A stretch of 64,000 bases of DNA, taken from the NCBI GenBank assembly GCA_963835535.1, contig CAWIFL010000002.1:649011-713010 (forward strand), written 5' to 3'. Positions 4,257-64,000 of this stretch are shown here, piece by piece. Below the pieces are notes generated by a model. That model had not been told where the DNA came from and did not search any database. It saw only the letters and a program-made list of their open reading frames with translations. Source of the DNA: an uncultured Gemmatimonadales bacterium. Lineage in GTDB: Bacteria > Gemmatimonadota > Gemmatimonadetes > Gemmatimonadales > JACORV01. Every line of letters begins with the position of its first letter. Position 1 is the stretch's first letter. The position numbers were made by a program, and so were the translations under genes.

Positions 4257-4278
4257 GTACAACACGGCAAGCCACCCC

Positions 4279-6926: not shown

Positions 6927-6934
6927 CGGCCGTC

Positions 6935-8563: not shown

Positions 8564-8614
8564 GGCGTGAGCTTACTTGACCCCCCAGATGCGCGTCAAC
8601 ATCTTGACTCGCGC

Positions 8615-9676: not shown

Positions 9677-9695
9677 CCGCTCCACCGCCGTTCCC

Positions 9696-11332: not shown

Positions 11333-11339
11333 CGTCCGG

Positions 11340-47319: not shown

Positions 47320-49014
47320 TCAGTCTAGCGCCGCGTCATCGTGCATACGAGCGGCCAAGAACGGTGTGCCCTCGACGATCCCGCGGCACACGGCGTCGAG
47401 GTTCGCGTCTTTCCCTTCGTCCAATTCGGACAGGGACGCATAGCGCAGCTCTGGGAGATTCCCAACGGACTCGTAGCGCACCTGGTGGAGTGAAATCGAT
47501 GCGCGGAAAATGGCGTAATACGCATAGCGACGCCATGCCTCGATGCGGGCAGCGTCACCCTTGGCGATCCGGCCCGACAAGACCGCGTCAAGCGCTGCGC
47601 GATACTCCTCGCGCGTCGCGGGTTCTATGGAGAGCCCCAGGCCACGGTAGTAAACGTCGCCCGCCAGAATCACGGGAACGCCCCGCACGCCCATCTCGAT
47701 CCCGGTCGTCGAGCCGTACACGAGACCGCAGTCTGCCAGGCTCATCAGCACGTAGGAGCTCGCGCCGCTCTCTGGGGGCACAACGATCACGTTGGGGGGC
47801 AGCGTCGGGAATCGTTGCCGCAGCAACTCGACCACCGAATCGCGTCCCGCTCCGGGGAGGATCACCTCCGCAGGGTGAACCCGAATGACGAGCTGCGCCT
47901 CCGGCCGCTCCGCAAACGCACCCACCGTTTCCACGATCCAATCCGCCATGCCGCCGAACCCAATGTCCCGCTCGAACAGGGTGGAGTCCCAGGTGATGTT
48001 CGGGAAGAGCACGGCGAGCCGCCTCGAGCGGTCGATGGCAAACTCGGCGCAGATCGCCTCGGCCGAGGACTCCAGGTTCGGGAAGTAATTGAGGAGGTAT
48101 CCCCCGCCCGTCGCGCGCTCGGCCAGATACCGGTCCAGGCGCTCGCTCTCCTCGCGGGTCAGCGGCTGGTTCGCAAACTGCGGCCAGTAGGCCGGATCCG
48201 CCACATCGGTGGCGCGATCATGCCGGAAAAAGAATGTCTCCGGCCGGAAGCCGACTTCCCAGGTGATCACATGAACGCGGCGGCGCTCCGCCGCCTCGAC
48301 CATGATCCATTCCGGGGCAAATAGGCCGTTCAACAGCACCACGGCATCCGGCCGGCGCCGGTCCAGCAGCAACTCGCACGCGTCCACCAGCCACACAGCC
48401 GAAACCAGCCACTCGCGATAGGTGGCGAGCGATTCCGGGTCTGCCGTGATCTTGTCAGTGCGCAGGAAGTGCGCCACCGAATGCCGCGTTAAGCGGCCGA
48501 TCGCATAGCCGCGATACTCCATGCCGGGGTAGTCCGGCGGGGCGAGCGCATCCACCAACGCCTGCGCCCGTTTCCGCGCTCCGGGAGGGAGTAGCTGGCC
48601 GAGCCACTCGGTGTCATGGCCGACCAGACGATGGCCGTGACTAGCGTACAGATGGCAGGCCCGACACACCCAGTGGCTGAGACGGGGGTAGTTGCCAGTG
48701 TTGCAGCTTCTCTTGAGCACACGATCGCAGCCCAGGACGGCCACGGAATGGCCGCGGCGCTGCAAGCTCCAGGCCAGAGTCGTGACCATCGCCACCTGGT
48801 CGCGCTCCTGCCGCGTCGCGAAGAACAGCACCCGCTTCCCGCCCGCGCCGGCCGTCGGGGGGGGTGCCCCACGCCGCAAGCGTCGCAGTTGCCGGAAGTA
48901 CGCGGTCTCGAGCCACGGCAGCGCGAGACGGGCGCGCCACCAGAGGAACAGGCCCAGCCGCCATGCCGCAGGGACCCGGCCGCGGAAGAACGCCTTGAGG
49001 CGCCGCACGCTCAT
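47320..49014 (-). CDS. Capsule-polysaccharide-biosynthesis-type GT-B enzyme (KpsS/KpsC, PF05159-like) 1
   Basis: ATG 49014 (MSVRRLKAFF). RVLFFATRQERDQVAM...GHSVAVLGCD, a Cys cluster (SCNTG...HWVCRAC) and IRVHPAE in the C-terminal Rossmann half. The family call comes from overall pattern only. Confidence 0.45.
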   Translation of the reverse strand: MSVRRLKAFFRGRVPAAWRLGLFLWWRARLALPWLETAYFRQLRRLRRGAPPPTAGAGGKRVLFFATRQERDQVAMVTTLAWSLQRRGHSVAVLGCDRVLKRSCNTGNYPRLSHWVCRACHLYASHGHRLVGHDTEWLGQLLPPGARKRAQALVDALAPPDYPGMEYRGYAIGRLTRHSVAHFLRTDKITADPESLATYREWLVSAVWLVDACELLLDRRRPDAVVLLNGLFAPEWIMVEAAERRRVHVITWEVGFRPETFFFRHDRATDVADPAYWPQFANQPLTREESERLDRYLAERATGGGYLLNYFPNLESSAEAICAEFAIDRSRRLAVLFPNITWDSTLFERDIGFGGMADWIVETVGAFAERPEAQLVIRVHPAEVILPGAGRDSVVELLRQRFPTLPPNVIVVPPESGASSYVLMSLADCGLVYGSTTGIEMGVRGVPVILAGDVYYRGLGLSIEPATREEYRAALDAVLSGRIAKGDAARIEAWRRYAYYAIFRASISLHQVRYESVGNLPELRYASLSELDEGKDANLDAVCRGIVEGTPFLAARMHDDAALD

Positions 49015-49024
49015 TCCCGCGCCC

Positions 49025-50511
49025 TCATCGGCGGGCGCCGAAAAGGCGATGCCCGGCGAAGCGGGCACAGGCCCCCAGCAGCGTCTCGTCGTCGTGGCCG
49101 ACCAGGCGAGAGAGCGCGCGCGGGGGACCGGAGACCGCCTCGCGGCACTCAAGCACGCGGTCGCGTTCCGCGTCCCTGCGCTGCGCCAGGCGCCGCGTCA
49201 CGGCCGCCTTCGGCCCGGCGACGAGGCGCGCAACCAGTGCCGCGACCGATCGGACCTGCAAGCGCCGCCCAGCCCGGCGCGCCTCGCGGTGGCAGTATGC
49301 GCCCGCGTCCGCTCGCAGCCGGCCCCGGAGCGCCCGCGCGGCCTCGGGCGGCGGGGCAGCCGCCGCGGCACGCTCCTCCAACACGCGCCACACCCGCTTC
49401 GACGCCTGGCCGTCAATCGGCCCCAAGTAGGCCTCAACGAACGCCATCCGGTCACGCTCCTGTGCCTTGGTCGGCAGCCTCGGCTCAACGTCTCGCAGAC
49501 GGCGCCCCAGGTCCTCGGCGGAGACGGCGACCTCAATGCAACCGTCCAGTTCGTGGTAGGGGAGCAGGAGTCCCTTGACCCGCTGGACGGCGTCGGTCCA
49601 GAACGTGTACACGACCCGCTTGCCCGCAGCCATCGCCTCCGCGAGCGCCGTCGTCTGGAAACCCACGACGACGTCGCTGGAAACGATCAGCTCCCGCGTG
49701 TCTGCGTCCCCGGGGAGGAGCGTCACTCGCGGCACGCCGTCGATCCGCCGATGAATCCCCTCCAGCATCTCGGCGTTGTGCTGGGGATGGGGCTTCATGA
49801 GCACCTCCACCCGCCCTTCCGCAGCGACGTTGCGGAGAACTGCCTCGGTCTCGCGATACATCGCCTCCCAAGGCCGGTGCGCAGCGCCGAGCCCCCGCTC
49901 CTCGTCGTAGGCGTCGAGGTCGTAGCACAGGAAGAGAACGCGGTGCCCCCCCCCGCCGCGCGCCGCGGCCAGCGCTCCGGATGCCGATAGTAGTCGAAGC
50001 GCGGCTGCCCGGCCACCGCAACCTGCTCAGGCTCCGCACCGGCCGCCACCCAGAACACCTTCGACTTCTCGCAGCACGTGGTCATCCAGTCGCCCTTGAA
50101 GGGGAACCACCGGCGCATCTCCCCGGCGTGCTTGGCCAGCGAGGTGGCGGAGACACCCGTCTCCTTCTGGACGACCACGAAGGGCACTCCCAGCTCGCGG
50201 CAGGCGTCGATCACGTCGCGGATGTAGAAGAACGTATCCGATGGCGAGACGAACAGCTCGAAAGGGAAGACGCGATAGAGGTCCCGCAGGAGCTCAAAGG
50301 CCAGCGTCCGGTAGCGCGTGCGCGCTTCCGCGTATTCCGCCGCGTGGTAGCGAGCGAGGTCGCTGCCCCACACGTCCCGCGGGAAAAAGCGCTCCGCCAC
50401 CCGGGCGAAGTACATCGGTGACACAGTGCGGATCACGTGCCGCCCGTCGTCCGCGAGCTGCAGCTCCACGATGTCCTGCGCGAAGTGATGGTCCAGGATG
50501 AGAACGTTCAT
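49025..50511 (-). CDS. Capsule-polysaccharide-biosynthesis-type GT-B enzyme (KpsS/KpsC-like) 2; frameshift in a C9 run
   Basis: The N-terminal ORF starts at ATG 50511 (MNVLILDHHF...SPSDTFFYIRDVIDACRELGVPFVVVQKE). The C-terminal ORF 49025-49861 contains VLMKPHPQ. The frames join exactly at the C9 run 49946-49954 (...RRAAGGG | HRVLFLCYDLDAY...). Confidence 0.45.
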
Positions 50512-50518
50512 GGCCACC

Positions 50519-52039
50519 TCAAGAACGCGCGGGAGCGACCCGCAACCCCACGAGCGAACGCAACAGCGCGCGCTCCGGCGCGTCGGTCCCGATGGTGACA
50601 AAGAGCGCGGCTGCCAAGACCAACGCCCCGCCGCCGTACGCCGCCGCGAGCACCAACGTGTCCGCCGGGCGCACGATGCTGAGGCCGCCAACCACTGCTG
50701 CGCCGATCAGCGCTGGCGGGTACGCCCTCACAAGCACCTGCTGGGCCAGCTCCTTCACACCGATGTCTAGGGTCCGCAGGCACAGCCGGAGGTAGAGGAC
50801 CGACGAGACCGAGTTGCCGACCAGAGTCCCCCACAGCACGCCGGCGATGCCCAGCCACGGGGTTGCCACGATGCTGATCAGTAGGTTCAGCCCGGTCGTC
50901 CAAACGGCGATGCGCACGATGGCGGCGATGCGGTCCATCCCTACCATCAGGTTCCAGCCGACCTGGACCAGCCCGAAGTACAGCGTGTAGACCAGCATCA
51001 GGCGGACTAGGCCGGCGTCCACGGTGAACGCCGGGCCCAGCCAGAGCCGCAACAGGGGGCGTGCCAACACCATGATCACCAGCGAGATGGGCACGGAGAT
51101 CGCCACGGAGTACTTCGTCGCCGTCATAAACAGCTTGCGCAACTGCGGCCGGTCGCCGACGGCGTAGAGCGCCGACGCCCCGGGCATGACCACCGAGCTG
51201 ATGAAGCCGGTGGCGATCAGGGCGAGGGCATGGAACCGAGCAACGACATCGTAGTGGGTCAGCGCAGTCGTGGTCATCATCACGCCGAGGATGGCCTTGT
51301 CCATCTGATTGTATACCAGCCCGTTGATGCGCAACAGCAGCATCTGGCCGGAGACCCGGGCCATCCGCATCACTGCCGGTCCCGACACCTGGCGGGAAAG
51401 GCGCAGCGACGGCAGCAGACGTCGCGCGGCGACACTCGCCGCCAGCAAGTTCGCACCCGACAGCACGAGTACCACGACCCCGAGCATTACGGCCCCCGCT
51501 CCGTTCCGAAGTGCGACCACGGCCGCCACGGCGAAGATCGTGGAGCGGGCCGCGTCGAAGGCCGCCAGCAGGTCGTAACGTTGAAGCCCTTCGATTACGC
51601 CGAGGACAGCCATGGCAGGGAATTCGATGAGCGACTGCAGCGCCATGATCGTCAATAGCACTTCGGCCGTGCGGACGAGCTCGGGCGGGATGTTGAAGGT
51701 CCGCGTAAGGAAGGCGTACGCGAAGACGAGGACGAGGAGCGCCGCGACGACGGCGATAGCGGCGAAGGCCGCCAGCGCCGCACTGAAGAGCACGTTCACG
51801 CGGTCTGTCTCGCCTCGCGCGTGGTGCTCCGCGATTTGCTTGACGAGGGCCCCTTGGATGCCCAATGAGAACAGAGAAAGGTAGCCCGCCACCGAAAACG
51901 AGAGTACGAGGACCCAGACCCCGTAGAGCGCGGCGCCGAGAGACCGGATCAGGAAGGGCGTGAGGATCACGCTGACGGCCATGCGCCAGACGAAGCCGAG
52001 CATCGTGAGCACGGAATTGCTCGCCACCCGCCTCAGCAC
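50519..52039 (-). CDS. Wzx-type polysaccharide flippase (MOP superfamily) 3
   Basis: Intact 506-aa polytopic ORF, beginning MLRRVASNSVLTMLGFVWRMAVSVILTPFLIRSLGAALYGVW. Confidence 0.75.
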   Translation of the reverse strand: MLRRVASNSVLTMLGFVWRMAVSVILTPFLIRSLGAALYGVWVLVLSFSVAGYLSLFSLGIQGALVKQIAEHHARGETDRVNVLFSAALAAFAAIAVVAALLVLVFAYAFLTRTFNIPPELVRTAEVLLTIMALQSLIEFPAMAVLGVIEGLQRYDLLAAFDAARSTIFAVAAVVALRNGAGAVMLGVVVLVLSGANLLAASVAARRLLPSLRLSRQVSGPAVMRMARVSGQMLLLRINGLVYNQMDKAILGVMMTTTALTHYDVVARFHALALIATGFISSVVMPGASALYAVGDRPQLRKLFMTATKYSVAISVPISLVIMVLARPLLRLWLGPAFTVDAGLVRLMLVYTLYFGLVQVGWNLMVGMDRIAAIVRIAVWTTGLNLLISIVATPWLGIAGVLWGTLVGNSVSSVLYLRLCLRTLDIGVKELAQQVLVRAYPPALIGAAVVGGLSIVRPADTLVLAAAYGGGALVLAAALFVTIGTDAPERALLRSLVGLRVAPARS

Positions 52040-52842
52040 GCCAGAGCCCCCCGCTTCCTCAATATGATCGTTCGCAGAAACATCCCCGGGACCGCTTCGC
52101 GAGACTCCTCGTCCTTCGCCACGTCCACGTCGCCTCGGCCCGCGAGCCAGCCCGCGTAGTCGTGATTGTAGATCCTGAAGTCGGCGCCGAGGTGCTCGAT
52201 CCCGGGTGGCTCAGACGGGTTCCGGTACTCCACGAGCACAACGTAGGCGCCGCTCACCCGCAGCAGTTCCTCGAGGCCCCGACGCGCATCCGACGCGGGG
52301 AGATGCATGATCAATGCGGACGTGAACACGACGGAGAACGAAGCGGTGCGGAACGGCAGCGCATACGCGCTGGCGCCCGCGAGCAGAGCCCGCCCGGGCG
52401 CCGAAGCGCAGCGGAGCGCGGCGACCCCGACGTCGATGCCGACGAGCTGTGCCGTGGGGACGCGCTCGGCGAGCAGCGCAAGGTTCGCGCCGAAGTTGCA
52501 GCCGACCTCAAGCACCGACGTCGGGGCGAGCGCAACGAGGTCATCCACCAGGGCGAGGCGCCGTCGGTCCGCGGCGTAGCCGCGGCGATTGCGCTCTGCC
52601 CACGCCGTCGCTGACCGCCTCCACACTGCCTCATCCTCACCCGCTCGCAGGCTGACGCCCACCCACGCGGCAATCCCGGCCTTCGCCGCACGGGCAGCGG
52701 CGCTGACGAAGAGCGTCTCCCCGGCGTAGGCCAGGGCCTCGCCGAGCCCGAGTGGGCGCCGGCAGAGCGCGTATAGGAAACGGTACGCGCGGCGCAGCGG
52801 CGTGATGCGCCGAAGACGGTCGCGCAGCGGTGCGGGCAGCAC
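52033..52842 (-). CDS. Class I SAM-dependent methyltransferase
   Basis: SAM motif I VLEVGCNFGANLALLA, with downstream IDVG and VVFTSALIMHL. Confidence 0.65.
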   Translation of the reverse strand: MLPAPLRDRLRRITPLRRAYRFLYALCRRPLGLGEALAYAGETLFVSAAARAAKAGIAAWVGVSLRAGEDEAVWRRSATAWAERNRRGYAADRRRLALVDDLVALAPTSVLEVGCNFGANLALLAERVPTAQLVGIDVGVAALRCASAPGRALLAGASAYALPFRTASFSVVFTSALIMHLPASDARRGLEELLRVSGAYVVLVEYRNPSEPPGIEHLGADFRIYNHDYAGWLAGRGDVDVAKDEESREAVPGMFLRTIILRKRGALAC

Positions 52843-53024: not shown

Positions 53025-53915
53025 TCACGCCTTGGCCCAGAGACTGGGCACGACGACCGCCTCGGGAAGATCCCGCAGCGCAGCGATCAGCGCCGTCTTG
53101 ATGTCGGGCCAGCCCGGTGGCGGCGGGCTGGAGGCGAAGGAGAGGTCCTCCTCGAGGTGCGCCATCGTGTCGACACCGAACACAATGTGGTCCGCCGGCC
53201 CGTCCAGGGCGAAGCGGAACGCCGCCTCCGCGGGAGAGATGCCGAACCGCACACAGACCCGCTGGAACGCCTTCACGAACGGCCGCGCATGCGCCAGGCG
53301 GTCCGGAACGCTGGCGGGCTCCATGACGACCAGACCCTGGCAGAACGGCGACCGTGCGTACACGCGGGTACCGCGCTCGCGCGCCCGGTCGAACACACCG
53401 GAAGCCGCGAACCGCCGGTCGAAAACCGAATACGGCAACTGCACGATGTCCTGGCCGGGGAGGAGGGCGTCGAACTCGCTCGGGAAGTAGATCGACGCCC
53501 CCACGTGCTGGCAGAGACCCCCGTCACGGGCCGCGAGCAGGGCCGCGACCATTGCGGGGTCCGCGCCGTACTGCGGCGTGTGGAACAGGATGCCGAGCGG
53601 CGACTCGGCGCTCCGCGCCAGGCGCGTGCGGCTCGCCAGGACCTCACTCGCGACCAGGCGGGGGAGGTGGTCGGGGTGCGCCGAGAGGAGCGGCAGCAGT
53701 TTCGTGGTCAGCGGCACCCCTGGTGAGACGGCGCTGCCGATGAGTTCTTCGGCCACGCCGTAGGCCGCGGCCGTGTCCAGCCCGAGCCCGGCCCGTTCCG
53801 CTGCCCGCAGCATTTCGACGCACTCCGCACGCGTCGGGGCCCGCTTCGCGTTAAGTCCGTAGCGGGTGCGGTCATGCCCTCCGAAGGCCGCAGTTCCGAG
53901 GCACAGCCGTCGCAT
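53025..53915 (-). CDS. Aldo/keto reductase family oxidoreductase
   Basis: ATG 53915 (MRRLCLGTAAFGG). LDTAAAYG motif and TIM-barrel-like periodicity. Confidence 0.65.
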   Translation of the reverse strand: MRRLCLGTAAFGGHDRTRYGLNAKRAPTRAECVEMLRAAERAGLGLDTAAAYGVAEELIGSAVSPGVPLTTKLLPLLSAHPDHLPRLVASEVLASRTRLARSAESPLGILFHTPQYGADPAMVAALLAARDGGLCQHVGASIYFPSEFDALLPGQDIVQLPYSVFDRRFAASGVFDRARERGTRVYARSPFCQGLVVMEPASVPDRLAHARPFVKAFQRVCVRFGISPAEAAFRFALDGPADHIVFGVDTMAHLEEDLSFASSPPPPGWPDIKTALIAALRDLPEAVVVPSLWAKA

Positions 53916-53991: not shown

Positions 53992-55049
53992 TCACGCCTC
54001 CCGTACGAGGGGCCAGGACAGAGGCGTACCCCGCGCGATGTCGCACGCCGCCGCCTTGCCGATGACCCCGTCCAAAAACCGGGGGGCCAATCCGTACCCC
54101 GGGCGGATCGATCGAACGTTCCTCGCCGTGAACCGCTGCCCCGCTGCCACATCCTCGACGACGTACAGGGACCGTCGGAGCACGACACTCCCTTCCTCAG
54201 CGACTCCCGGTCCGAACGTCGCACGCCCCAGCATCCCCTCCGCCCGGCGCACCTCGCGCACCAGCTCCCCGAGCTCCGCGGGCTCAAGCGAGAAATGGCT
54301 GTCCACACCCCCGTCCGAGCGCCGCAGCGTCAGGTGCTTCTCCACCAGGCAGGCGCCCAGCGCGACCGCAACCACCGGCGCTAGGTGTCCGCCGCTGTGG
54401 TCGGACAGCCCAACGAGACAGCCCGTCTCGGCGGCGAGCACGGGGATGCTGCGCAGGTTCATCGAGTCGTCGGGAGCGGGATAACTGCTCGTGCACTTGA
54501 GGATCACCACGTCAGCGACCCCTGTTTCGCGCAATACGTCGACCGCGTGCACGATCTCGTCGCGCGTCGCCATCCCCGTCGAGAGGATGACGGGCTTTCG
54601 CGTCTTCGCGACCACCCGCAGGAGTGCGTCGTCCACCAGCTCGAACGACGCGATCTTGTACGCCGGAGCCTCCAGGGCCTCCAGAAACTCCACCGCCGTG
54701 GCGTCGAACGGCGTTGAGAAGATCTCCATGCCGAGGCCGCGGGCCTCAGCGAAAAGCTCCGCGTGCCACTCCCACGGCGTGTGCGCCTCGCCATACAGAT
54801 CGTAGAGCGTCCGCCCCCCCACGGCCCGCCCCCGGGGACGACGAAGTCTGGCTTGGCGCAATCTATCGTAAGAGTGTCCGGCGTATACGTCTGCAGCTTG
54901 ATCGCGTCCACTCCCGCAGCGGCCGCGGCGCGGACGAGCTCAAGCGCGCGCTCGCGGCTTCCGTTGTGGTTGCCGGAAAGCTCGGCAACCAGGAAGGCTG
55001 GTCGCCCGTGGCCCACCGTCCGCTGGCCTATGCTAACCGTGTGTTCCAT
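53992..55049 (-). CDS. pseI: Pseudaminic acid synthase-like nonulosonate synthase (NeuB family); frameshift in a C7 run
   Basis: FLVAELSGNHNGS, DAIKLQTYTPDTLT | TLYDLYGEAHTPWEWH, YKIASFE, PVILSTGMAT, LKCTSSYPAP, GLSDHS and a C-terminal SAF domain. The two ORFs join at the C7 run 54813-54819. Confidence 0.8.
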
Positions 55050-55083
55050 ATCATGCCCGTCGTCCCCAAGAGAGCGAGAACAC

Positions 55084-57111
55084 CTAGTTCAATCGCTTGA
55101 ATGCCGCGTGACATACCGGTCCTTTCAGAAGGCTGATCGCATTCCGACCATTTTCGCACTCTGCGATCAACCCGAATACCGGATCAAGCGCCTCAAAGTA
55201 CCGATCTACAATCGAGCCGGTGTGTTCGACGCAGACATACACAGAGTCCGCCGCCAGGAATCCCTTCTTGAGCATCTCTTGCGTGAGCAAGGTCTTGTAA
55301 GCGAGTGCATTGGCGCTTTGGATAGTAAAGCCGGCCAGGGCGGGCAAGCCCCAGTGACTGATCCTGAGCCCATGCGTGTCCGCCAATTGTTGCCACCGCT
55401 TTCTGACCTGCAGCCCCATCTTGGTGATGGTCTCCCAGGACTTCGTTCGCTCCATCACATCCAGGGTCGCCAGGGCGGCAGTCGGGCCGATGCGCTCGGT
55501 CCAGAACGTGCTGCTGATGAAGGTCTCTTGGGCGGCTTCCATGACTTCACGTTTGCCAATGCACGCTGTGATGGCGTAGCCGTTGCCAAGTGCCTTGCCG
55601 AACATGGCCATATCGGGCTGTACACCGTGTTTCTTGTGCAGGCCACCGAAGGTCTCGCGGAAACCTGACGTGCATTCGTCAAAGATCAGGACAATGCCTT
55701 TGTCCGTGGCCAGCTTGCGGATCTTTTCAAGGAAGCCATCTTCCGGCGCAACGTTGCGGGACACCTCCATCATGATCACGCCGATGTCGTGCTCACGCAT
55801 CAGGCCTTCAAGTTCTGGGAAACTGTTGTAGCGGAACGGCAGCACACTGCCACGGAGGCTCCGAGGAACACCCTTAGGTTGCAGGCCCGGCAACAGATGG
55901 CCGGCGAGGTTCTCTTCGTCCCCCAGGTTGGCGGCAAGATACCAGTCATGCCAGCCGTGGTAGCCGCAAATGGCCACCTTGTCTTTTCCGGAAGCCGCAC
56001 GTGCGATCCGGATGGCGATCGCATTGGCCTCGCCGCCCGAGCGTGCCAATCTCACCATGTCGGCCCAAGGATGCATGGCGACCAAACGTTCGGCCAAATA
56101 GACCTCCTCCGGGCAGTTGAGGGTGGACATGTTGCCGGCGGCAACGGTGCGCTGCACAGCTTCGTCCACTTCCGGATGGCCGTAACCGAGGATATTCGTG
56201 CCGATGCCCATGATCGACATGTCAGTATATTCGCGCCCATCCATATCCCAGACCTTGCAGCCTTTGGCTTTGCTGAAGTAGGCGGGCCATTGTTCTGGCA
56301 AGAACATTTCGGCACGCTTTGATAGCAGCATGTTGCCACCCGGAATCACCCTTTTGGCGCGCTTCCAGAGTTTCTGTCCGGTACTCATCATCGCTCCTTC
56401 GTTGCGACTCAAGCGTTGATTGGCGGCAAAAAGGTCGGGCCTAGCCTTGCGTAATCGCATGACTTCAAGCCAAGAGAAGTCTGTGCGCAGCGCGAAACTC
56501 TCGTAGACGGCCTTGATGACCGCAAGGTCCTCCGGCTCATCGACCGTCCAGCGTTCGCCGGAACAGTCCTCCGTGTGGGAGATGTTGAGGATGCGGAATT
56601 GGCCGGATTCCCGGATATAGGTGGTGACATGCTCGCGTTCGTGCGGCTGGCCTGCCCTTTGCCACGCGGTTCGCAGGGCAGCGAATGTGAATGCCTCGGT
56701 ATCGAGACCATCCGGATAGGTGGGCGGGTTGGTATTGCAGGCGTAATCGGCGCCGCCAGCCTTCAACGGGGCAATGACGCTATCGACAATCTGAGGGTCT
56801 ATTAGCGGACAGTCGCCTGTGATGCGTACCACGATATCCGGCTCACGGACTGCGGCAGCCTGGTAATAGCGATCCAGCACATCGTCTTCGCTGCCCCGAA
56901 AGACGCTGTAGCCAAGCCTGCGAACGTGATCAACCAGCGGCTGGTTGCGAGGGTCTTGTGTGGTGGCGACCACGATCTGGTCGATCTGTTGCGATCTGGC
57001 CAGTCGTCTGAGCAACAACTCAATCATCGGCACCCCACCAATGGGTTGCATGACCTTGCTGGGGAAACGAGTTGACCCCATGCGAGCTTGGACGATGGCA
57101 AGGACTTTCAC
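55084..57111 (-). CDS. Fusion protein: SpsF/CMP-type cytidylyltransferase (N-terminal ~240 aa) plus class-III PLP aminotransferase, glutamate-1-semialdehyde aminomutase-like (C-terminal ~430 aa)
   Basis: The N-terminal domain reads MKVLAIVQARMGSTRFPSKVM...RITGDCPLID. The C-terminal domain reads ARSGGEANAIAIRIARA, DECTSGFR and MAMFGKALGNGY (PLP lysine). Intact 675-aa ORF in the lower-GC block. Confidence 0.75.
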   Translation of the reverse strand: MKVLAIVQARMGSTRFPSKVMQPIGGVPMIELLLRRLARSQQIDQIVVATTQDPRNQPLVDHVRRLGYSVFRGSEDDVLDRYYQAAAVREPDIVVRITGDCPLIDPQIVDSVIAPLKAGGADYACNTNPPTYPDGLDTEAFTFAALRTAWQRAGQPHEREHVTTYIRESGQFRILNISHTEDCSGERWTVDEPEDLAVIKAVYESFALRTDFSWLEVMRLRKARPDLFAANQRLSRNEGAMMSTGQKLWKRAKRVIPGGNMLLSKRAEMFLPEQWPAYFSKAKGCKVWDMDGREYTDMSIMGIGTNILGYGHPEVDEAVQRTVAAGNMSTLNCPEEVYLAERLVAMHPWADMVRLARSGGEANAIAIRIARAASGKDKVAICGYHGWHDWYLAANLGDEENLAGHLLPGLQPKGVPRSLRGSVLPFRYNSFPELEGLMREHDIGVIMMEVSRNVAPEDGFLEKIRKLATDKGIVLIFDECTSGFRETFGGLHKKHGVQPDMAMFGKALGNGYAITACIGKREVMEAAQETFISSTFWTERIGPTAALATLDVMERTKSWETITKMGLQVRKRWQQLADTHGLRISHWGLPALAGFTIQSANALAYKTLLTQEMLKKGFLAADSVYVCVEHTGSIVDRYFEALDPVFGLIAECENGRNAISLLKGPVCHAAFKRLN

Positions 57112-57205
57112 GCCAGCAACTGTGGGGTCCCGCCCGCCGATACCCTGGGTTGCACGGTTGAGTCTCCCATCCTCAACGAGTCTTGAGGTCGGACATTGGA
57201 TCGCA

Positions 57206-57889
57206 TCACCCAGCTGCAGGGTCCGCGCTCAGGGCACCGATGACACTCATGAAATGCCCAAGGTCGGGAATGCAATACCGCGCCTCATAGCCCGGCTTCG
57301 CCTCAGCGTTCCTGTGCGCCCCCGTGAGCACGCGGACCGTATTCATCCGGACTTCGCGCAGGCCAACAAAGTCCTTCGCCGGGTCATCTCCAACGTAGGT
57401 CATGTCCGCCCAGTCGCATCTCTCGGCCTCGCGAATGCGCTCAAAGCAATAGGTTGAAGGTTTAGCATACTGGATGCCATAACGATGAGTAATGAAGATC
57501 CGGCGGAACAGGGGCGCGATTGCCAGAGCTTCAATCTTGTGTTGCTGCACAATCTTGTGGCCATCAGTGACAACATAGAGTGGGTGGCCTTTCAGCTTTG
57601 GCAGCAAGTCCCTTGCATCTGGATAGAGCGACAGGTGTGGCGTATGATGCCGATACGCCCGCACGCATTTGTGCACCAAGCTTCTGCTATAACGACCACG
57701 CGATTCCAGCCAACGATCAAAGATCGCGCCGCGACCTTCACGATCTAGCACATCCAGCATAAAATGAAACGACGCGTCGAGGTCCCAGCCGAACAGGGCA
57801 CGACCGAAAGCCGCGACAGATCTCAGGCCGCTTTCCACGTATGCGCGTTCATCATAAAGCGTATCGTCAAGATCAAAAATCAGAACCAT
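57206..57889 (-). CDS. HAD-superfamily hydrolase/phosphatase
   Basis: ATG 57889 (MVLIFDLDDTLYDE, the DxDxT motif I). VVTDGH (motif II-like) and YVGDDPAKDF (motif IV-like). Confidence 0.7.
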   Translation of the reverse strand: MVLIFDLDDTLYDERAYVESGLRSVAAFGRALFGWDLDASFHFMLDVLDREGRGAIFDRWLESRGRYSRSLVHKCVRAYRHHTPHLSLYPDARDLLPKLKGHPLYVVTDGHKIVQQHKIEALAIAPLFRRIFITHRYGIQYAKPSTYCFERIREAERCDWADMTYVGDDPAKDFVGLREVRMNTVRVLTGAHRNAEAKPGYEARYCIPDLGHFMSVIGALSADPAAG

Positions 57890-59792
57890 AGATATGAATA
57901 TCGTCGGGGACGCGGACTTGACGCACCTCGCCAGAAATGCGGTCAAAGGGATAATCACCCAAATCTGCCCCACTGGTTTCAAGCAGGCTCCAGTAGAACA
58001 CGTCAAGCCCCGCCGCAATAGACGCCGTGGATGCACCACCAAAGCGCGTGTTACATTCGATGACGTGAATACCCTTGTGTAAATCCACCATCGCCTGCAC
58101 AACCACGGGGCCACGCACCTTCAGGGCCTGCACCACCACTCCAATCGCCGCTTCAATATCCGTATCGCGGAAGGTCGTTGTGACCTGTGACTCACCAGAC
58201 AGAACGAGGTCACGAGTGCGCAGCACGAGGGCCTTCACCTGATGGGAACGGGTTGCCCAAGCATCAATACTGATTTCGATACCTTCAAGGAACGGCTGAT
58301 AGATCGCGTCCTCCAACCTCGCGCCGTGCGCAAGTGCGGCCGCTCGGTCAAGATTGAGGCCAATTGACCGGGCACCGGCCCCATAACGCTCCTTCGCCAC
58401 ATATGGCCCCTTACCCACTTCATCAGGGTGCAGGCCCGCCGGGACGAAGGGCAACCCTCTAGCCAGGCCAAACTGCGCAAAGGCGAGCTTGTCACGGCAT
58501 GTCTCGACGCTTTCAACAGGCGAGACAACAACCTCAACGCCTTCTGCGGCAAACCGTTCTCGATTCCGGGACCAGAAAAGTAGCTCGTCATCCCGTGTTG
58601 GAATAACAACATGGATCTTGCGTCGCTTGCATCCGGCTACAAGCACCTCAATGGCAGCATCATCGAATCTTGGCGTGCGCCAGAACCCGTCAGCCACGTA
58701 GCGCGCTAGTGCGTTGTGATCGAGATCGCCGGCGATAACCTGGCTGCTAGGACTGACCCTCCGTGCGGCCTTCTGTACCGCCCGGACAAGCGGGATCTTC
58801 CTAGATGCACAGGTTACCAAGACGTTACCCAACGGCGCCGCCGCCACCTCACTGGCAGTAAGTCTTCCCATTTCATGAGCAATGACTTCCTGAATCCCAC
58901 TCTCAAGATCGTATTCAGGCACCCAGCCGACCGCCTTGCGGTATGCGGTCATGTCAGCCTGTGACGCTTCGAAGGGAATGTCAGAATTCTCTTCCCGCAC
59001 CTTCATGTTGGGGAAATGTGTGCGTAGGATGTCAACCACGTCCTGGACCGTGCGAGCACGTCCCGTACCAAGATTGAGAATACCTGCGACTGCATCGGCG
59101 TCCGCCAACCGAATCAAGCCTTCCGCCGAGTCCTTGGCGTACACGTAGTCAAACATGCCTTCTGGTCGGTAGACCGTAATTGACTCACCGGCGAGCAGCG
59201 CCCGGACCCAGCGCGAAATCACATCCCGTGAGTTGCGCCCGTAGCCACGATAAATTCGCGCACAGGCCGTCGTAAATGACTCGGCGCAAAACCTATCCAG
59301 AAAACGCAATTCAATTTCATGCGCGAACTTGGCCATACCAGTCAGATTGCGCGGCAGGACAGGGGCCGATTCCCTCAACGAAACAGGTGCGGTTTGCGGC
59401 CCATCAAACTGATACTGCGCTTGATCATAGATGAGGTAACTGGACGCGAAAACGACCCGCTTCAGAGACGGCACGCCCTTGGCGATGGTCATCAAGTGAT
59501 GGCTGAGCCGCACATTGTGCCAGTAGTTCTCTTCCCAGAAGCCATATGTCTCGGTGGAGCGTTCAAAGGTGGCGGCCAAATGGATGAACACATCGGGGGC
59601 AAAGGCCTCTAATTCACCCTTGGTTATCAGATTAAGGTCACCCTGGCGATAGCGTACCTCCTTAGCGAAGCCGGCGGGACGCGGCTTCAAGTCACCCACA
59701 AGAACCTTGGCGCCACGCGCGAGCAGCCGTGGGATCATTTCCAACCCGATTACCCCAGCACCACCGCTAACGAAGACTCGTTTGTTTTCCAT
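57873..59792 (-). CDS. Fusion protein: atypical extended-SDR domain (N-terminal ~310 aa) plus ATP-grasp ligase domain (C-terminal ~320 aa)
   Basis: The N-terminal domain has RVFVSGGAGVIG and FASSYLIY, but the YxxxK position reads PRNLTGMAK. The C-terminal domain has VLVTCASRKIPLV..., IPTRDDELLF, CRDKLAFAQF, YVAKERYGAGARSIG, QPFLEGIEISIDA and VIECNTRFGG, an ATP-grasp pattern. Confidence 0.7.
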   Translation of the reverse strand: MENKRVFVSGGAGVIGLEMIPRLLARGAKVLVGDLKPRPAGFAKEVRYRQGDLNLITKGELEAFAPDVFIHLAATFERSTETYGFWEENYWHNVRLSHHLMTIAKGVPSLKRVVFASSYLIYDQAQYQFDGPQTAPVSLRESAPVLPRNLTGMAKFAHEIELRFLDRFCAESFTTACARIYRGYGRNSRDVISRWVRALLAGESITVYRPEGMFDYVYAKDSAEGLIRLADADAVAGILNLGTGRARTVQDVVDILRTHFPNMKVREENSDIPFEASQADMTAYRKAVGWVPEYDLESGIQEVIAHEMGRLTASEVAAAPLGNVLVTCASRKIPLVRAVQKAARRVSPSSQVIAGDLDHNALARYVADGFWRTPRFDDAAIEVLVAGCKRRKIHVVIPTRDDELLFWSRNRERFAAEGVEVVVSPVESVETCRDKLAFAQFGLARGLPFVPAGLHPDEVGKGPYVAKERYGAGARSIGLNLDRAAALAHGARLEDAIYQPFLEGIEISIDAWATRSHQVKALVLRTRDLVLSGESQVTTTFRDTDIEAAIGVVVQALKVRGPVVVQAMVDLHKGIHVIECNTRFGGASTASIAAGLDVFYWSLLETSGADLGDYPFDRISGEVRQVRVPDDIHIYGSDF

Positions 59793-59800
59793 CTCTCCAT

Positions 59801-60352
59801 TTACCGTTCGTATGAACTGATGCAGCCATGCACGATCGAATCCACAGGCTGGCCATCGATTATCACGTGATGCCTTAGCGTTCCTTCTCGGCGAAAGCCC
59901 GCAGCCTCCAGCACAGCGATATGATGAGTGCGCGTCGCATAGGTTTCCGTGAAGATGCGCTCTAGTCCCAAGTCTTCAAAAGCAAGGGTCTTCATCAGCT
60001 TGAGGAATGGAGCAAAGTACCGCGTATAGTCACCTTTCCTGCCGGCCAGAAGCGGGTTCAACAGGAATGAGACTTCGGCTCGACGATGCTCCCAAGCGAT
60101 ATGTACAAGCGCGCCATATCCGATAGCAACCTCATTCTCCAGATAGATAAGAAGAATATTCCTTGGCCGCGGCACGTCCATTTCCGGCCAGACATAGGTA
60201 TCGTAGTACTCGCGTTGCTGATCAGGGGTAATGACCTCTGACTGCCGTAGGACACTCATCTGCGCGTTTCGCCACTGCCGAATGCTCTCGATATCGCTCG
60301 GCTGCACAGCCGCGAGAGCAAGCGCGCCATCTTGCAGCTTCCGCCTCGGCAT
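59801..60352 (-). CDS. GNAT N-acetyltransferase, PseH-like
   Basis: ATG 60352. LAAVQPSDIESIRQWRNAQMSVLRQSEVITPDQQREYY resembles the PseH/FlmH N-terminal signature. A GNAT core follows (IGYGALVHIAWEHRRAEVSFLL). Confidence 0.6.
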   Translation of the reverse strand: MPRRKLQDGALALAAVQPSDIESIRQWRNAQMSVLRQSEVITPDQQREYYDTYVWPEMDVPRPRNILLIYLENEVAIGYGALVHIAWEHRRAEVSFLLNPLLAGRKGDYTRYFAPFLKLMKTLAFEDLGLERIFTETYATRTHHIAVLEAAGFRREGTLRHHVIIDGQPVDSIVHGCISSYER

Positions 60353-60632
60353 ACATCTGTAGCTTCTTAGAGATTGCCCGTCCACATTGCTCCTCCAGCA
60401 CTTGGCACGTCCCGTCACGTGTCACTATACCTGCCACGTGCTCGCGCGGCGGATACAATGCGCGTCAGCGCCCCACAGCTGGCCGCCGCGGCGTGGCATC
60501 CTGACACGTCACCGAACTGTCGTATCGGCATGCGAGCTGAACTGCGCCCGCCCAAACGGCGCCCCATGGTCCGGTACCCGCCGACCTTTGCTGCGGCCAA
60601 GCTGCTTGTGGTCTGCGACCTAGCTGCTGCCC

Positions 60633-61823
60633 TCAGTGCCCGGCTGGCACTGGGGCTACGCGGCGCATCACGACCGTCAGCGCGTCGCACACGCGCGCGA
60701 CATCGGTGTCCTTCATCGCGTGGTACATCGGAATGCTGATCTCGTGCTCGTACCACCATTCGGCGTGCGGAAATTGCTGCGGGCCGTACCGCGCGAGATA
60801 GAATGGCTGCTTGTGGATCGGGATGTAGTGGACCTGCCCGCCAACACCCAGCCCCGCTAGATCGGACAGGACCTGCGCGCGGCGCTCGACGAGGACCGGG
60901 AACAGGTGATAGGCGTGCGTGCGGCCGGTCGGCTCCGCCTGCAATCCGATCCCCCGCACGCCCGCGAACGCTTCCCGGTACCGTGCCGCGATCGCACGCC
61001 GACGAGCCAGCCCAGCCTCAAAGCGCAGCAACTGGCTGGTACCGAGCGCCGCGAGGATGTCCGGCATCCGGTAATTGAAGCCGAGACGCTGCATCTCGTA
61101 CCACCAGGGACCCTCATGCCACTGCAGCCGCTGCGAGTCGCGCGTGATCCCGTGCGTGCGCAGCATCCGTGCCCGCTCAGCAAGATCCGCCCGGCTGGTC
61201 ATCACCGCCCCGCCCTCGCCGGTCGTGATGTGCTTGACCGGATGGAAGCTGAGCGTGGCGAACGCCGACGTGCTGGCGTCACCCACCTTCCTTACGCGGC
61301 CCTGTGCGTCCGTCCATGTGGCGCCGGGAGCATGGCAGGCATCCTCGATCAGTTCCACGCCGTAGCGCGAGCACAGCTCGCCGACCCGCACTAGGTCGCA
61401 CGGAAGGCCCGCGTAATGCACCACCACTACCGCCCGGAGGCGTCCCGGGCCCCGGTAGTCAGCGAGCAGCTCCTCGAGCGCTTGCGCCGACAGAAGACCT
61501 GTGTCCGGTTCCACGTCCACGAACGCGACGTCCGCGCCGCAGTATAGCGCGGCGTTGGCCGAAGCCACAAAGGTGATCGGTGGAACGACGACGACATCAC
61601 CGGGACCGATGCCGAGGGCCAGCATTCCGACGTGCAAGGCAGCAGTGCCCGAGCTCACGGCCACAGCCTCCTCAGCGCCGAACCGCTGGCACAGTGCCGT
61701 CTCGAATTGCCCAACGGCCGGGCCCTGCGTCAGCCAGTCGCCCCGCAGCACCCGAACCACCGCTTCGATGTCATCGTCGTCAATATGGTGATGCCCGTAT
61801 GGGATCACCGGCCCGTCAGTCAT
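60633..61823 (-). CDS. pseC: DegT/DnrJ/EryC1-family PLP aminotransferase, PseC-like (UDP-4-keto-6-deoxy-hexose transaminase)
   Basis: Intact 396-aa ORF. IPYGHHHIDDDDIEAVVRVLRGDWLTQGP, SSGTAALH, the SFHPVKHITTGEGG lysine motif and LRTHGI. Confidence 0.8.
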   Translation of the reverse strand: MTDGPVIPYGHHHIDDDDIEAVVRVLRGDWLTQGPAVGQFETALCQRFGAEEAVAVSSGTAALHVGMLALGIGPGDVVVVPPITFVASANAALYCGADVAFVDVEPDTGLLSAQALEELLADYRGPGRLRAVVVVHYAGLPCDLVRVGELCSRYGVELIEDACHAPGATWTDAQGRVRKVGDASTSAFATLSFHPVKHITTGEGGAVMTSRADLAERARMLRTHGITRDSQRLQWHEGPWWYEMQRLGFNYRMPDILAALGTSQLLRFEAGLARRRAIAARYREAFAGVRGIGLQAEPTGRTHAYHLFPVLVERRAQVLSDLAGLGVGGQVHYIPIHKQPFYLARYGPQQFPHAEWWYEHEISIPMYHAMKDTDVARVCDALTVVMRRVAPVPAGH

Positions 61824-62821
61824 GCGTCAATTGGCTCCGTCTCCGCTGGATCGAGGCCGAGCTCTACCAGCATGGCGCGCATCCGCTCTACGCTGAGCCA
61901 CTCCGTGTTCCGGTCGGAGGCGTACTCGAAGCGGTCCGGTACTCGCGGTGCGTCTTCATAGTTGCTCCCGTCCCAGTAATCCAGCTGGGGACAAACAACA
62001 AAGTGGTGCGGAAACTCGACGGTGCGAGGCGCGTCATCTGCCGGGATCATCAGCTCGTGTAGTTTCTCGCCCGGGCGAATGCCGACTTCGAGGATGTCGC
62101 AACCGGGAGCGACTGCCTCCACGAGGTCGAGGATCTTCATGGACGGGATCTTGGGCACGAACAGCTCACCACCGTGCATCGTGCGCGCCGCCATCAGGAC
62201 GAAGTCCACGCCGTGATCGAGGGTGATCCAGAATCGTGTCATGCGACGGTCGGTCACCGGGATTACCCCCGTCTGGCGCTGCTTGAGGAAGTAGGGGATC
62301 ACGCTGCCGCGGCTTCCCATGACGTTCCCGTATCGCACCACCGAAAAGCGGGTATTACGAGAGCCCACGTAGCTCTGCGCCGTGACGAACAACTTGTCCG
62401 AAACGAGCTTGCTCGCTCCGTACAGATTGATGGGCATCGCCGCCTTGTCAGTCGAGAGCGCCACGACACGCTCCACCCCGCAGTCAATGGCGGCGTCGAT
62501 CACGTTCATGGCGCCGTGCACGTTGGTCTTGATGCACTCGAACGGATTGTACTCCGCGATCGGCACGTGTTTCAATGCCGCCGCGTGGATCACTGTGTCG
62601 ATCCCGTGCATTGCGCGCATCAACCGGTCACGGTCACGGACGTTGCCGATGAAGAAGCGCAGCCGGGGGTCCGAGAACTCGCCAGCCATCTCGTACTGCT
62701 TGAGTTCGTCGCGGCTGTAAACCACGATGCGCTCAGGATCGTGCTCGCCCAGCATCCGGCGCACGAACGCCCTGCCGAACGACCCGGTACCGCCGGTGAC
62801 GAGGATCTGGTTCATGCTCAT
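61820..62821 (-). CDS. pseB: UDP-N-acetylglucosamine 4,6-dehydratase (inverting), PseB/FlaA1-like
   Basis: ILVTGGTGSFGRAF, HAAALKHVP, LSTDKAAMPINLYGASKL and VRYGNVMGSRGSVIP. 4-nt overlap with pseC. Confidence 0.85.
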   Translation of the reverse strand: MSMNQILVTGGTGSFGRAFVRRMLGEHDPERIVVYSRDELKQYEMAGEFSDPRLRFFIGNVRDRDRLMRAMHGIDTVIHAAALKHVPIAEYNPFECIKTNVHGAMNVIDAAIDCGVERVVALSTDKAAMPINLYGASKLVSDKLFVTAQSYVGSRNTRFSVVRYGNVMGSRGSVIPYFLKQRQTGVIPVTDRRMTRFWITLDHGVDFVLMAARTMHGGELFVPKIPSMKILDLVEAVAPGCDILEVGIRPGEKLHELMIPADDAPRTVEFPHHFVVCPQLDYWDGSNYEDAPRVPDRFEYASDRNTEWLSVERMRAMLVELGLDPAETEPIDA

Positions 62822-62831
62822 GAAGACCGGA

Positions 62832-64000
62832 CTAACCGTGAAGCGGGATCGCGTCGCGCGAGCGCTGCCCGTCGACTGTGCCGGAGCCCACCGCCTCCCC
62901 GCGCGCCCGGTCAAGATCAGGGAATAGCTTCCTCAACGATGCGGCCACATCACTATCATTGCCATCGCGCAGTGCATGTTCCCACGCCTCGACCCGGCTG
63001 CTCATCGTCGTGCCGCCGCAGCCGCCGTCGGTGAATACGAGACGCACTTTCGGGATCGCGGTCGGGCGGGTCTGCTCGTCGGGCGAGAGCAGCTGTTCAT
63101 GGAGCCGCTCTCCAGGGCGGAGACCGGTGTACACGATCCTGCCTCCGTCCCTATTGTCTAACCCAGCCAAGTGCAACAAGTTCTTCGCGAGGTCCTCGAT
63201 TCGCACCGGCTCACCCATCTCAAGCATCGCAATGCTCCCGCGCACCTCCGGCAAGAGCGAGGCTTGCAGGATCAACTGCACGGCCTCCTGGATCGTCATG
63301 AAGTACCGGGTCGCCTCGGGGTCCGTGACGGTCAGCGGCCTGCCGCTCTCCAGCTGCCTCTTGAAGATGGGGAGCACGCTTCCGTTGCTGCCAAGCACGT
63401 TGCCGAACCGGACGGCCGCGTACGTCGTGCCCTGGTGCCGTTGCCTGCAGCTCCAACACGACGAGTTCGGCGAGGCGCTTCGTCGCACCCATCACGCTCA
63501 CGGGCTGAACGGCCTTGTCGGTGCTCACGAGAACGAACTTGTCCGTGCCGTGGCGGCCCGCAGCGTCCGCCACCCGCCACGTGCCGATCACGTTGTTGCG
63601 GATAGCCTCGCGCTGGTTGCACTCCATCATCGGCACGTGCTTGTAGGCGGCGGCGTGATAGACTCGCTCCGGCCGGTGCTCGCGGAACACCCTCTCCACT
63701 GCCGCCGGATCAACGATGTCGCCGATCACCGGGACAAGGGTGAGATCGCGGGTGCTTCTCGCGCAACTCCATCCCGATGTAGAACAGATCCGTTTCGGCC
63801 TGGTCAAACAGCACCAGCGTCCCGGGGCCGTGAAGGGCAACCTGACGCGCCAGCTCCGAGCCAATGGAGCCCGCAGCGCCAGTGATCAGGACCCGCCGGC
63901 CCCGCAGGTCCGCAGCCAACTCGGGCAGAGTGAGCTGCACCGGCTCCCGCCCGAGCAGATCCTCGATTCGGACATCGCGGAGCTGATTGATACGGACGTC
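62832..64000 (-). CDS. CapD/WbpM/PglF-type polysaccharide biosynthesis dehydratase, C-terminal catalytic part; 5' end beyond the window; two frameshifts as assembled
   Basis: VLITGAAGSIGSEL, HAAAYKHVPMME, STDKAVQPVSVMGATKR and VRFGNVLGSNGSVLP are spread over three frames. Switches lie near 63748 and 63445. Confidence 0.7.

Follow-up and report, generated by a model that had tools for sequence, protein, structure and literature searches.

The stretch analysed here, a 64-kb window of contig CAWIFL010000002.1 from an uncultured Gemmatimonadales bacterium, is a polysaccharide super-locus. It encodes two Wza-like proteins, a WbaP-like transferase, glycosyltransferases of the GT1 and GT2 families, Wzy_C, Wzz and Wzx, and, across its length, epimerases, acyltransferases and methyltransferases. 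Near its end lies a gene cluster for a nonulosonic acid of the pseudaminic acid (Pse) type, in which all genes from PseB to PseI (53992-62821) are on the minus strand. Among named homologues, the best matches of a flanking WbpB-like gene, at up to 93% identity, come from Gemmatimonadales metagenome-assembled genomes. Between PseC and PseI the cluster contains four genes of lower GC content, which are the main subject of this article. The first three encode a GNAT-family acyltransferase related to PseH (GNAT'), an SDR-like domain fused to an ATP-grasp ligase, and a HAD phosphatase; they are referred to below as the ATP-grasp cassette (GNAT'-SDR*::ATP-grasp-HAD). The fourth encodes a cytidylyltransferase fused to a class-III aminotransferase (CT::AT3). 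This list of genes, proposed earlier in a reading made from the DNA letters alone (the sequence-only reading), was confirmed by Pfam and NCBIfam. The four genes are not one functional unit, as had been supposed, but two independent and widespread cassettes.

Three enzymes of the cluster belong to the canonical Pse pathway. PseB, the inverting UDP-GlcNAc 4,6-dehydratase (61820-62821; Polysacc_synt_2), scores 510.7 bits on TIGR03589 (cut-off 407.75), and PseC, the UDP-4-amino-4,6-dideoxy-L-AltNAc transaminase (60633-61823; DegT_DnrJ_EryC1), scores 466.6 bits on TIGR03588 (cut-off 423.5). The identities first given to both proteins are therefore upheld at the level of NCBIfam equivalogs. PseI, the pseudaminic acid synthase (53992-55049), was also named correctly, since its C-terminal part reaches 370.9 bits on TIGR03586 (cut-off 340.25) and its N-terminal part 78 bits. 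However, it is not an intact open reading frame (ORF): a 1-nt frameshift had gone unnoticed. The 1058-nt interval has no continuous frame, and the N-terminal 79 codons are out of frame with the remainder. The frames join at a run of seven identical bases (C7/G7, 54814-54820), and the addition of one base to this run restores a full-length PseI of 352 amino acids.

Are such frameshifts real? At least five genes of the window are split by them: a Wza-like gene (4165-6926), Wzz (45605-46691), a candidate transferase (49025-50691), PseI, and a CapD/WbpM-like gene (62832-63864). The frameshift in the Wza-like gene is found at a G8 run, and that in PseI at its 7-nt run; a systematic scan for homopolymer indels that would merge ORFs was noisy at the GC content of the window and was informative for these two genes only. 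Frameshifts in around 10% of genes fit the error of long-read assemblies. The frameshifts in PseI and the other genes of the window are probably assembly indels and not signs of pseudogenes.

The four genes between PseC and PseI (55084-60385) differ in composition from the DNA around them. The GC content is 57.1% over 55084-60352, compared with 67.5% for the whole window and 70.8% for its first 24 kb, and the GC content at third codon positions (GC3) of the four genes is 0.60, 0.61, 0.60, and 0.71, compared with 0.73-0.94 elsewhere in the window. The corresponding values are 0.82 for PseB, 0.81 for PseC, 0.73 for PseI, and 0.87 for the aldo/keto reductase (AKR) gene that follows PseI. The tetranucleotide distance, measured in 5-kb segments, reaches its maximum in the window on this block (z=3.8). 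Thus, the lower GC content and foreign origin that had been suggested for 55.1-60.4 kb from a few counted lines are borne out: the 5.3-kb block is compositionally foreign and has been recently imported. Nor is it an assembly chimera on its PseC side. A 5351-bp contig (L083) from an independent Logan assembly of the short-read run ERR10755942 is 100% identical to positions 56181-61531, which include the 3' two-thirds of PseC (with host-like GC content), the whole ATP-grasp cassette and the 5' part of the fusion gene. Because this contig is identical across them, the joins at either end of the ATP-grasp cassette are real. The stretch that it covers has no frameshift; the junction between the fusion gene and PseI lies outside it.

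The CT::AT3 fusion (55084-57111) is a protein of 675 amino acids, in which an SpsF-like cytidylyltransferase domain (PF02348, 106.6 bits) is joined to a class-III aminotransferase domain (PF00202) resembling glutamate-1-semialdehyde (GSA) aminomutase. It has thousands of homologues, and the best 120, nearly all of 675 amino acids, come from different phyla and are 72-78% identical to it at 100% coverage; identity to loci in named genomes is 63-73%. A scan of one genome per species found the fusion at no fewer than 541 confirmed genome places. Among the matches listed, the hosts include Proteobacteria, Chlorobi, Cyanobacteria, Verrucomicrobia, Bacteroidota, Gemmatimonadota, Leptospira, SAR11, bacteria of the candidate phyla radiation, and one methanogen.

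In its usual setting, the fusion is part of a cluster with the order PseB-PseC-AKR-fusion-PseG-PseH-PseI, where PseG and PseH score above their equivalog cut-offs. The O-antigen genes lp6_762-765 of L. pneumophila Sg6/12 are an example of this type (PMC3694923). As a reference set, we used the 43 fusion loci that also hold PseB and PseI ('complete' fusion loci). An AKR is present in 42 of the 43 and PseG in at least 27, while the ATP-grasp cassette is present in none; in 31, the N-terminal domain of the fusion is the sole CTP_transf_3 gene within 10 kb on either side. The fusions of this cluster type, for example in Marinobacter persicus (L033) and a member of the Comamonadaceae (L016), are 63-78% identical to that of the window over the full length, and the window has PseB, PseC, PseI and an AKR in common with these clusters. 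It differs in having neither PseG nor PseH (only 34 bp separate the fusion gene from PseI), in a divergent AKR that is placed after PseI, and in the ATP-grasp cassette between PseC and the fusion. The AKR in question is a KidO-like protein (53025-53915, minus strand; PRK14863, 74 bits) encoded directly after PseI; a reductase of this kind is the usual partner of the fusion.

Which reaction might the fusion and its partner catalyse? The nearest solved relative of the cytidylyltransferase domain is a stand-alone 'cytidylyltransferase' (PDB 6oew, E=7e-39). The best PDB relatives of the aminotransferase domain include GSA aminomutases (GSAM) and aminoglycoside C-6' aminotransferases, and its motif FGKALGNG can be read as containing the lysine that binds pyridoxal phosphate (PLP). 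Aminoglycoside C-6' aminotransferases act after a dehydrogenase. An 8-amino-3,5,7,8,9-pentadeoxy-nonulosonic acid is present in the O-antigen of Flexibacter maritimus (PMC3210612). From the motif, the C-6' aminotransferase relatives and this natural 8-amino sugar, we infer by analogy that the fusion and the AKR oxidise and then transaminate a hydroxyl of Pse, most likely that at C8.

A related arrangement is known from Acinetobacter baumannii prophages, where EpaA (CTP_transf_3::Aldo_ket_red) and EpaB (an SDR) convert Pse5Ac7Ac to 8-epi-Pse5Ac7Ac (8ePse) (PMC12053666). When compared by description, both systems fuse an SpsF-type CTP_transf_3 domain to a nonulosonate-modifying enzyme, both have a redox partner, and an AKR is involved in each. 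In EpaA, however, it is the reductase that is fused to the CTP_transf_3 domain, and an SDR serves as partner, whereas in the window the fused domain is a PLP-dependent aminotransferase, the AKR is separate, and the locus has no adh_short_C2 gene. Since the fused domain is an aminotransferase, amination is predicted rather than epimerisation of the EpaA type.

The first gene of the ATP-grasp cassette, GNAT' (59801-60385, the gene call being that of L083; Acetyltransf_3/4), encodes a distant member of the PseH family of N-acyltransferases. It scores 29 bits on the PseH model TIGR03585, far from the cut-off of 93.1, yet PseH is its best NCBIfam match, and an hhalign comparison of the GNAT' family with PseH gives a probability of 98.3% (E=1.3e-14) over 162 columns, with a common WRN motif. 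The description 'PseH-like' is thus right as to kinship but falls short of equivalog status. GNAT' is 55-61% identical to its cassette homologues. It is followed by the SDR::ATP-grasp fusion (57873-59792; Epimerase, PylC-like_N, and ATPgrasp_Ter), which has at least 120 full-length homologues at 57-72% identity, and then by a HAD-IA phosphatase (57206-57889; PF00702/HAD_2, TIGR02253/YjjG-like), whose frame overlaps the end of the ATP-grasp gene, stop codon included, by 17 nt. All four HAD motifs are invariant in nine homologues, and the protein resembles phosphatases of the YjjG/CTE7 type. Every ATP-grasp locus examined has GNAT' before the fusion and HAD after it, with overlapping frames and 55-63% identity; a metagenome scan with the ATP-grasp fusion gave eight loci, a number that limits the synteny statistics.

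The SDR-like domain has lost the catalytic tyrosine of its family, which is replaced by threonine. An invariant PRNLTGMAK segment aligns with the YGIAK of UDP-hexose 4-epimerase; TGMAK stands in place of YGxxK in all 14 homologues compared, so that the YxxxK of the catalytic triad is absent, while the GxxGxxG motif and the lysine are kept. By both sequence and fold, the neighbours of the domain are UDP-sugar enzymes, which include UDP-glucuronic acid (UDP-GlcA) epimerase and decarboxylase structures in the PDB. The domain is best read as a nucleotide-sugar-binding module and not as an oxidoreductase. In the AlphaFold model of this protein, the confidence is below 50 at residues 126-155, around the segment with the Tyr-to-Thr change, and about 90 in the ATP-grasp domain. 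The best Foldseek match of the ATP-grasp domain is the uncharacterised structure 2pn1, the sole close one; more distant structural neighbours are L-amino-acid ligases, PurK and biotin carboxylases. Sequence and fold searches with the ATP-grasp, HAD and GNAT proteins returned only uncharacterised or generic neighbours. The ATP-grasp protein of the Shewanella sfm locus was considered as a relative and rejected, as it belongs to a different family and a different context.

The ATP-grasp cassette is found in other Pse clusters, some of them in flagellar and some in polysaccharide loci. In Rhizomicrobium palustre (L084) it is located beside flagellins, PseB, PseC and PseI, and at further loci (L087, L089-92, L093-95, and L096-97) it adjoins PseB, PseC and PseI, often together with two methyltransferases and a Maf-type gene. 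The loci of R. palustre and Planktothricoides raciborskii (L096) and the metagenomic loci L087, L089 and L093 have the same three genes as the window, in the same order and with overlapping frames, at 55-72% identity and with the same linkage to PseB, PseC and PseI. Unlike the window, these loci use a plain PseF (a true one in L093, 312 bits), a short SpsF-like cytidylyltransferase (L096) or a cytidylyltransferase::PseG-like fusion, and a class-III aminotransferase is absent from them. The CT::AT3 fusion, the AKR and canonical PseH are all missing from the cassette loci with PseB, PseC and PseI. The ATP-grasp protein of L089-92 is without the SDR domain. The cassettes closest to that of the window (66-72% identical; L085, L098, and L099, around positions 6500-13900) stand alone, with no Pse genes within 10 kb. 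Their neighbours are a gene of the UDP-glucose/GDP-mannose dehydrogenase family, a DUF218 gene, another GNAT gene and a gene for a methyltransferase of 410 amino acids.

Several other features of these loci were observed. Immediately upstream of GNAT', the loci L086, L089, L093 and L096 all have a Methyltransf_23 gene and a TylF-like (Methyltransf_24) gene; it may be speculated that the group installed by the cassette is then methylated twice, to give a substituent of the di-O-methylglyceroyl type. In P. raciborskii, extra PseI fragments follow PseI (L096, 12576-14922; L097, 4078-6530) and are interleaved with a PIN-domain toxin gene, and the TIGR03587 methylase is split into two ORFs. In L093, a PDDEXK_10/DUF3782 gene (5985-6800) is located inside the Pse cluster, between the methylase and the pair of methyltransferases, and a transposase fragment lies upstream of PseB. 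A gene for 213 amino acids after PseF in L093, which was considered as half of a PseG, is the TIGR03587 methylase.

Have the two cassettes been combined anywhere else? No second instance of the four-gene block was found, and the closest homologues of the fusion (P0002-P0004) and of the ATP-grasp protein (P0123) are in ordinary arrangements. Because they do not co-occur in the other loci examined, the fusion and the ATP-grasp/HAD pair must each be able to work without the other. The fusion belongs with the AKR in a common cluster type, and the ATP-grasp cassette travels separately. The sequence-only reading had called these tailoring enzymes unusual, a description that does not survive the counts of their homologues given above: neither cassette is rare, so 'unusual' applies to how they have been characterised and to their combination in this window, and not to the enzymes. 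Literature searches on either cassette, and on an ATP-grasp, carbamoyl phosphate synthase-like or HAD cassette in Pse loci, found no relevant paper. The view that this gene set does not correspond to a characterised pathway therefore stands.

In the canonical pathway of Campylobacter and Helicobacter, six enzymes (PseB, PseC, PseH, PseG, PseI, and PseF) make activated Pse. The window shares PseB, PseC and PseI with it at equivalog level, and has in addition a PseH-related GNAT and a CTP_transf_3 domain, both of them far below the PseH and PseF cut-offs (29 vs. 93 and 23 vs. 206 bits). It is without PseG, and adds the ATP-grasp ligase, the HAD phosphatase, the class-III aminotransferase and the AKR. 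The earlier statement that no NeuA-type PseF is present is correct at equivalog level, as the cytidylyltransferase domain scores 23 bits on TIGR03584 (cut-off 205.7), but the domain belongs to PF02348, the Pfam family of NeuA, PseF and KdsB. In functional terms that statement is most likely wrong because of this family membership, the relative 6oew and the 31 of 43 loci in which the fusion holds the sole cytidylyltransferase; PseF is probably not missing, its role being filled by the domain in the fusion. It has been proposed that an SpsF-like cytidylyltransferase replaces NeuA in Vibrionaceae clusters (PMC7371886), and for SpsF-like cytidylyltransferase fusions an action on Pse has been either proposed or demonstrated (PMC7371886, PMC12053666). 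GNAT' probably does the job of PseH, or a variant of it, since canonical PseH is absent wherever the cassette accompanies PseB, PseC and PseI.

The absence of PseG, also reported from the first inspection, was confirmed. Four PseG-type queries gave no tblastn match over all 64 kb of the window, nor was any Glyco_tran_28_C domain found among the ORFs scanned. Tblastn for a hidden PseG, with queries taken from L084 (its PseG-like domain) and L086 (its half PseG), gave no match in the window or the cassette loci, and no PseG emerged when unannotated neighbouring ORFs were compared with NCBIfam at E<=1. Most of the cassette loci also have no PseG within 10 kb on either side. In R. palustre, an SpsF-like cytidylyltransferase of 587 amino acids (L084, 13803-15566) carries a divergent PseG-like domain, which matches TIGR03590 over its full length at 42 bits, and in L086 half a PseG (119 bits) lies next to the cassette. 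The PseG-like domain of L084 is a third kind of fusion partner for SpsF-like cytidylyltransferases, besides the AKR of EpaA and the class-III aminotransferase.

Taken together, the locus is read here as a mosaic pathway for a Pse-type nonulosonic acid, set in a large Wzx/Wzy polysaccharide region and leading to a further-substituted Pse derivative; we put the probability of this reading at about one in two. Resident genes of host-like composition (PseB, PseC, PseI, the AKR, a methylase, and the candidate transferase) would flank the imported block with its two cassettes. By family assignment, PseB and PseC would convert UDP-GlcNAc to UDP-4-amino-4,6-dideoxy-L-AltNAc, the 4-amino group of which would be acylated by GNAT' in place of PseH. 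The SDR-like domain may bind the nucleotide sugar for the fused ATP-grasp ligase, which would attach a phosphorylated co-substrate through an additional amide (or ester) bond; the phosphate would then be stripped by the HAD phosphatase, whose gene is translationally coupled to that of the ligase. UDP may be removed by an unlinked PseG or by an activity of the ATP-grasp cassette that has so far escaped recognition. PseI, provided that its frameshift is an assembly error, would condense the free sugar with phosphoenolpyruvate, and the SpsF-like domain, acting as PseF, would make the CMP-sugar. Finally, the aminotransferase and the AKR might oxidise and transaminate a hydroxyl, likeliest at C8, by analogy with EpaA/EpaB and with the dehydrogenase/aminotransferase pairs of aminoglycoside pathways. 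The expected product is a CMP-activated Pse derivative with amino and/or acyl substituents, destined for an O-antigen or exopolysaccharide. It is probably a new derivative. The proposal, made at the outset from the ligase, aminotransferase and phosphatase, that the sugar is further derivatised is reasonable and gains support from this analysis.

The ligation and dephosphorylation steps follow domain chemistry and a precedent from the HS:2 capsule of C. jejuni. There, Cj1437 transaminates, Cj1438C amidates glucuronic acid with serinol phosphate, and the HAD protein Cj1435 removes the phosphate after ligation, so that the product is a serinol or ethanolamine amide of polymer-bound glucuronic acid (PMC11800397). 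The window shares the three activities, namely a transaminase, an ATP-dependent ligase and a HAD phosphatase. The likeness to Cj1438C and Cj1435 is one of reaction logic only, an analogy and not family membership. N-glyceroyl Pse is known, and in 2017 its genetic basis was still unknown (PMC5378307). Possible phosphorylated partners for the ligase are 3-phosphoglycerate, phosphoserine or amino-alcohol phosphates.

Several observations weigh against the mosaic pathway as described. PseI and at least four other genes of the window are frameshifted as sequenced, and the function of the locus is not guaranteed. The pathway has a gap at UDP removal, because no UDP-sugar hydrolase was found in the window. 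The Foldseek neighbours of the ATP-grasp domain are only generic, and BLASTP gave no significant alignment of the ATP-grasp protein with Cj1438C or of the HAD protein with Cj1435 (best scores 19.6 and 12.7 bits). The AKR is around 30% identical to the usual partner reductases (29-31% to those of L033 and L016 in tblastn, 95-107 bits), and it sits after PseI instead of, as is usual, between PseC and the fusion. The substrates of the ATP-grasp ligase, the HAD phosphatase, the aminotransferase and the reductase are all inferred. The substrate of the ATP-grasp cassette could be something other than a Pse intermediate, and the cassette may act outside the Pse pathway, because it stands alone in L085, L098 and L099.

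What other explanations should be considered? The ATP-grasp cassette might replace both PseH and PseG, and provide an ATP-dependent route from UDP-4-amino-4,6-dideoxy-L-AltNAc to the free acylated hexose used by PseI. This would account for the lack of canonical PseH, and mostly of PseG, in the window and in L087, L089-92, L093-95 and L096-97, and for the reference loci, where PseG is frequent and the cassette never present. The strong conservation of the cassette genes, which equals that of PseB (55-72% identity), would fit, as would the resemblance of the SDR-like domain to enzymes that bind UDP-sugars. However, cassette and PseG-like sequences are found together in L084 and L086, the cassette also exists without Pse genes, and a PseG could be unlinked, as the search covered 10 kb on either side. 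Moreover, we know of no chemistry that would allow an ATP-grasp enzyme and a HAD phosphatase to split UDP off a UDP-sugar. We consider such a displacement unlikely. A bolder version, to which we attach slightly less credence, is that the cassette defines a PseH- and PseG-independent, ATP-consuming branch of Pse synthesis in more than 1000 bacteria of several phyla, in which the hexose both receives an N-acyl group other than acetyl and is freed from UDP, and that together with a C8-aminating module it would yield a triamino nonulosonic acid.

It is also conceivable that the locus is decaying. The recombination that imported the block would have deleted PseG and PseH, the pathway would be dead, and PseI and several neighbours would be pseudogenes. 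The frameshifts in PseI, Wzz, the candidate transferase and the Wza-like and CapD-like genes would be explained in this way, as would the absence of PseG from all 64 kb and a combination of cassettes that is unseen elsewhere. By contrast, none of the four imported genes is truncated or interrupted, their catalytic motifs are kept, two of the frameshifts coincide with G/C runs 7-8 nt long, and the stretch covered by the independent contig has none. A dead pathway is thus improbable.

Could the block instead work as a single unit, like the uronamide genes of C. jejuni? The aminotransferase would then produce an amino-alcohol phosphate, the ATP-grasp enzyme would amidate a sugar carboxylate (either C1 of the nonulosonate or that of a uronic acid in the polymer), and the HAD protein would remove the phosphate. 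The three domains are adjacent in the window, and a trio with these activities has been characterised (Cj1437/Cj1438C/Cj1435; PMC11800397). The closest cassette homologues adjoin a UDP-sugar dehydrogenase gene, which would supply the carboxylate, and the best PDB matches of the SDR-like domain include UDP-GlcA epimerase and decarboxylase. Nevertheless, the fusion and the ATP-grasp/HAD pair are never together elsewhere, either in the 43 complete fusion loci or in any cassette locus, neither Cj1438C nor Cj1435 is similar in sequence, and the close partners of the aminotransferase domain are instead a cytidylyltransferase and an AKR. We regard a single uronamide-like unit as quite doubtful. Last, that the low-GC block comes from another organism and was mis-joined into the contig is very improbable: the drop in GC content and the tetranucleotide change are abrupt, the source is probably a metagenome-assembled genome and the fusion/PseI junction lies beyond L083, but L083 is identical from within PseC, through the cassette, into the fusion gene, and gene order and strand carry on without a break into the flanking Pse genes.

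The list of genes given in the sequence-only reading was incomplete downstream of PseI, where the AKR and three further genes on the minus strand had been overlooked. The first (52033-52842) encodes a SAM methyltransferase (Methyltransf_25/11) akin to the 'Pse biosynthesis-associated methylase', whose model TIGR03587 it matches at 57 bits, short of the cut-off of 112, and the second (50519-52039) a Wzx-type flippase (Polysacc_synt_3/MatE). The third is a candidate nonulosonate transferase split over two ORFs (49025-50691), with weak matches to the BFO_1060 family (E=1e-8) and TIGR04396 that fall on complementary parts of the profile.

Other observations concern the wider window. The Wza-like export genes at 4165-6926 and 21279-23741 are paralogous, with similar Gln-rich N-termini, and two such paralogues in one window imply either two export systems or a duplicated locus. 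Three ORFs with coding-like GC3 have no Pfam match (47320-49152, 610 amino acids; 27095-28462, 455 amino acids; and 31698-33560, 620 amino acids), and the first of these was also without a match in an NCBIfam scan. Two ORFs are composite: 35285-36703 joins a Glycos_transf_4 domain (WecA/MraY-type) to a GT2 domain, and 39203-41461 an N-terminal Epimerase fragment to a GT1 domain. These may be true fusions or the products of frameshift errors.

Many chemically modified forms of such sugars are known, and it has been stated explicitly that the enzymes behind the modifications are mostly unknown (PMC5378307). The present locus draws attention to two very widespread cassettes which are strongly conserved (55-78% identity across phyla) and, as far as we could find, uncharacterised in the literature. 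The window is one unusually combined instance; it is of value less as a unique system than for the two large sets of nonulosonate-biosynthesis enzymes to which it points. Once assigned, the reactions of both cassettes would explain a large share of the 'unknown' nonulosonate clusters in environmental genomes, and might reveal how Pse clusters manage without PseG.

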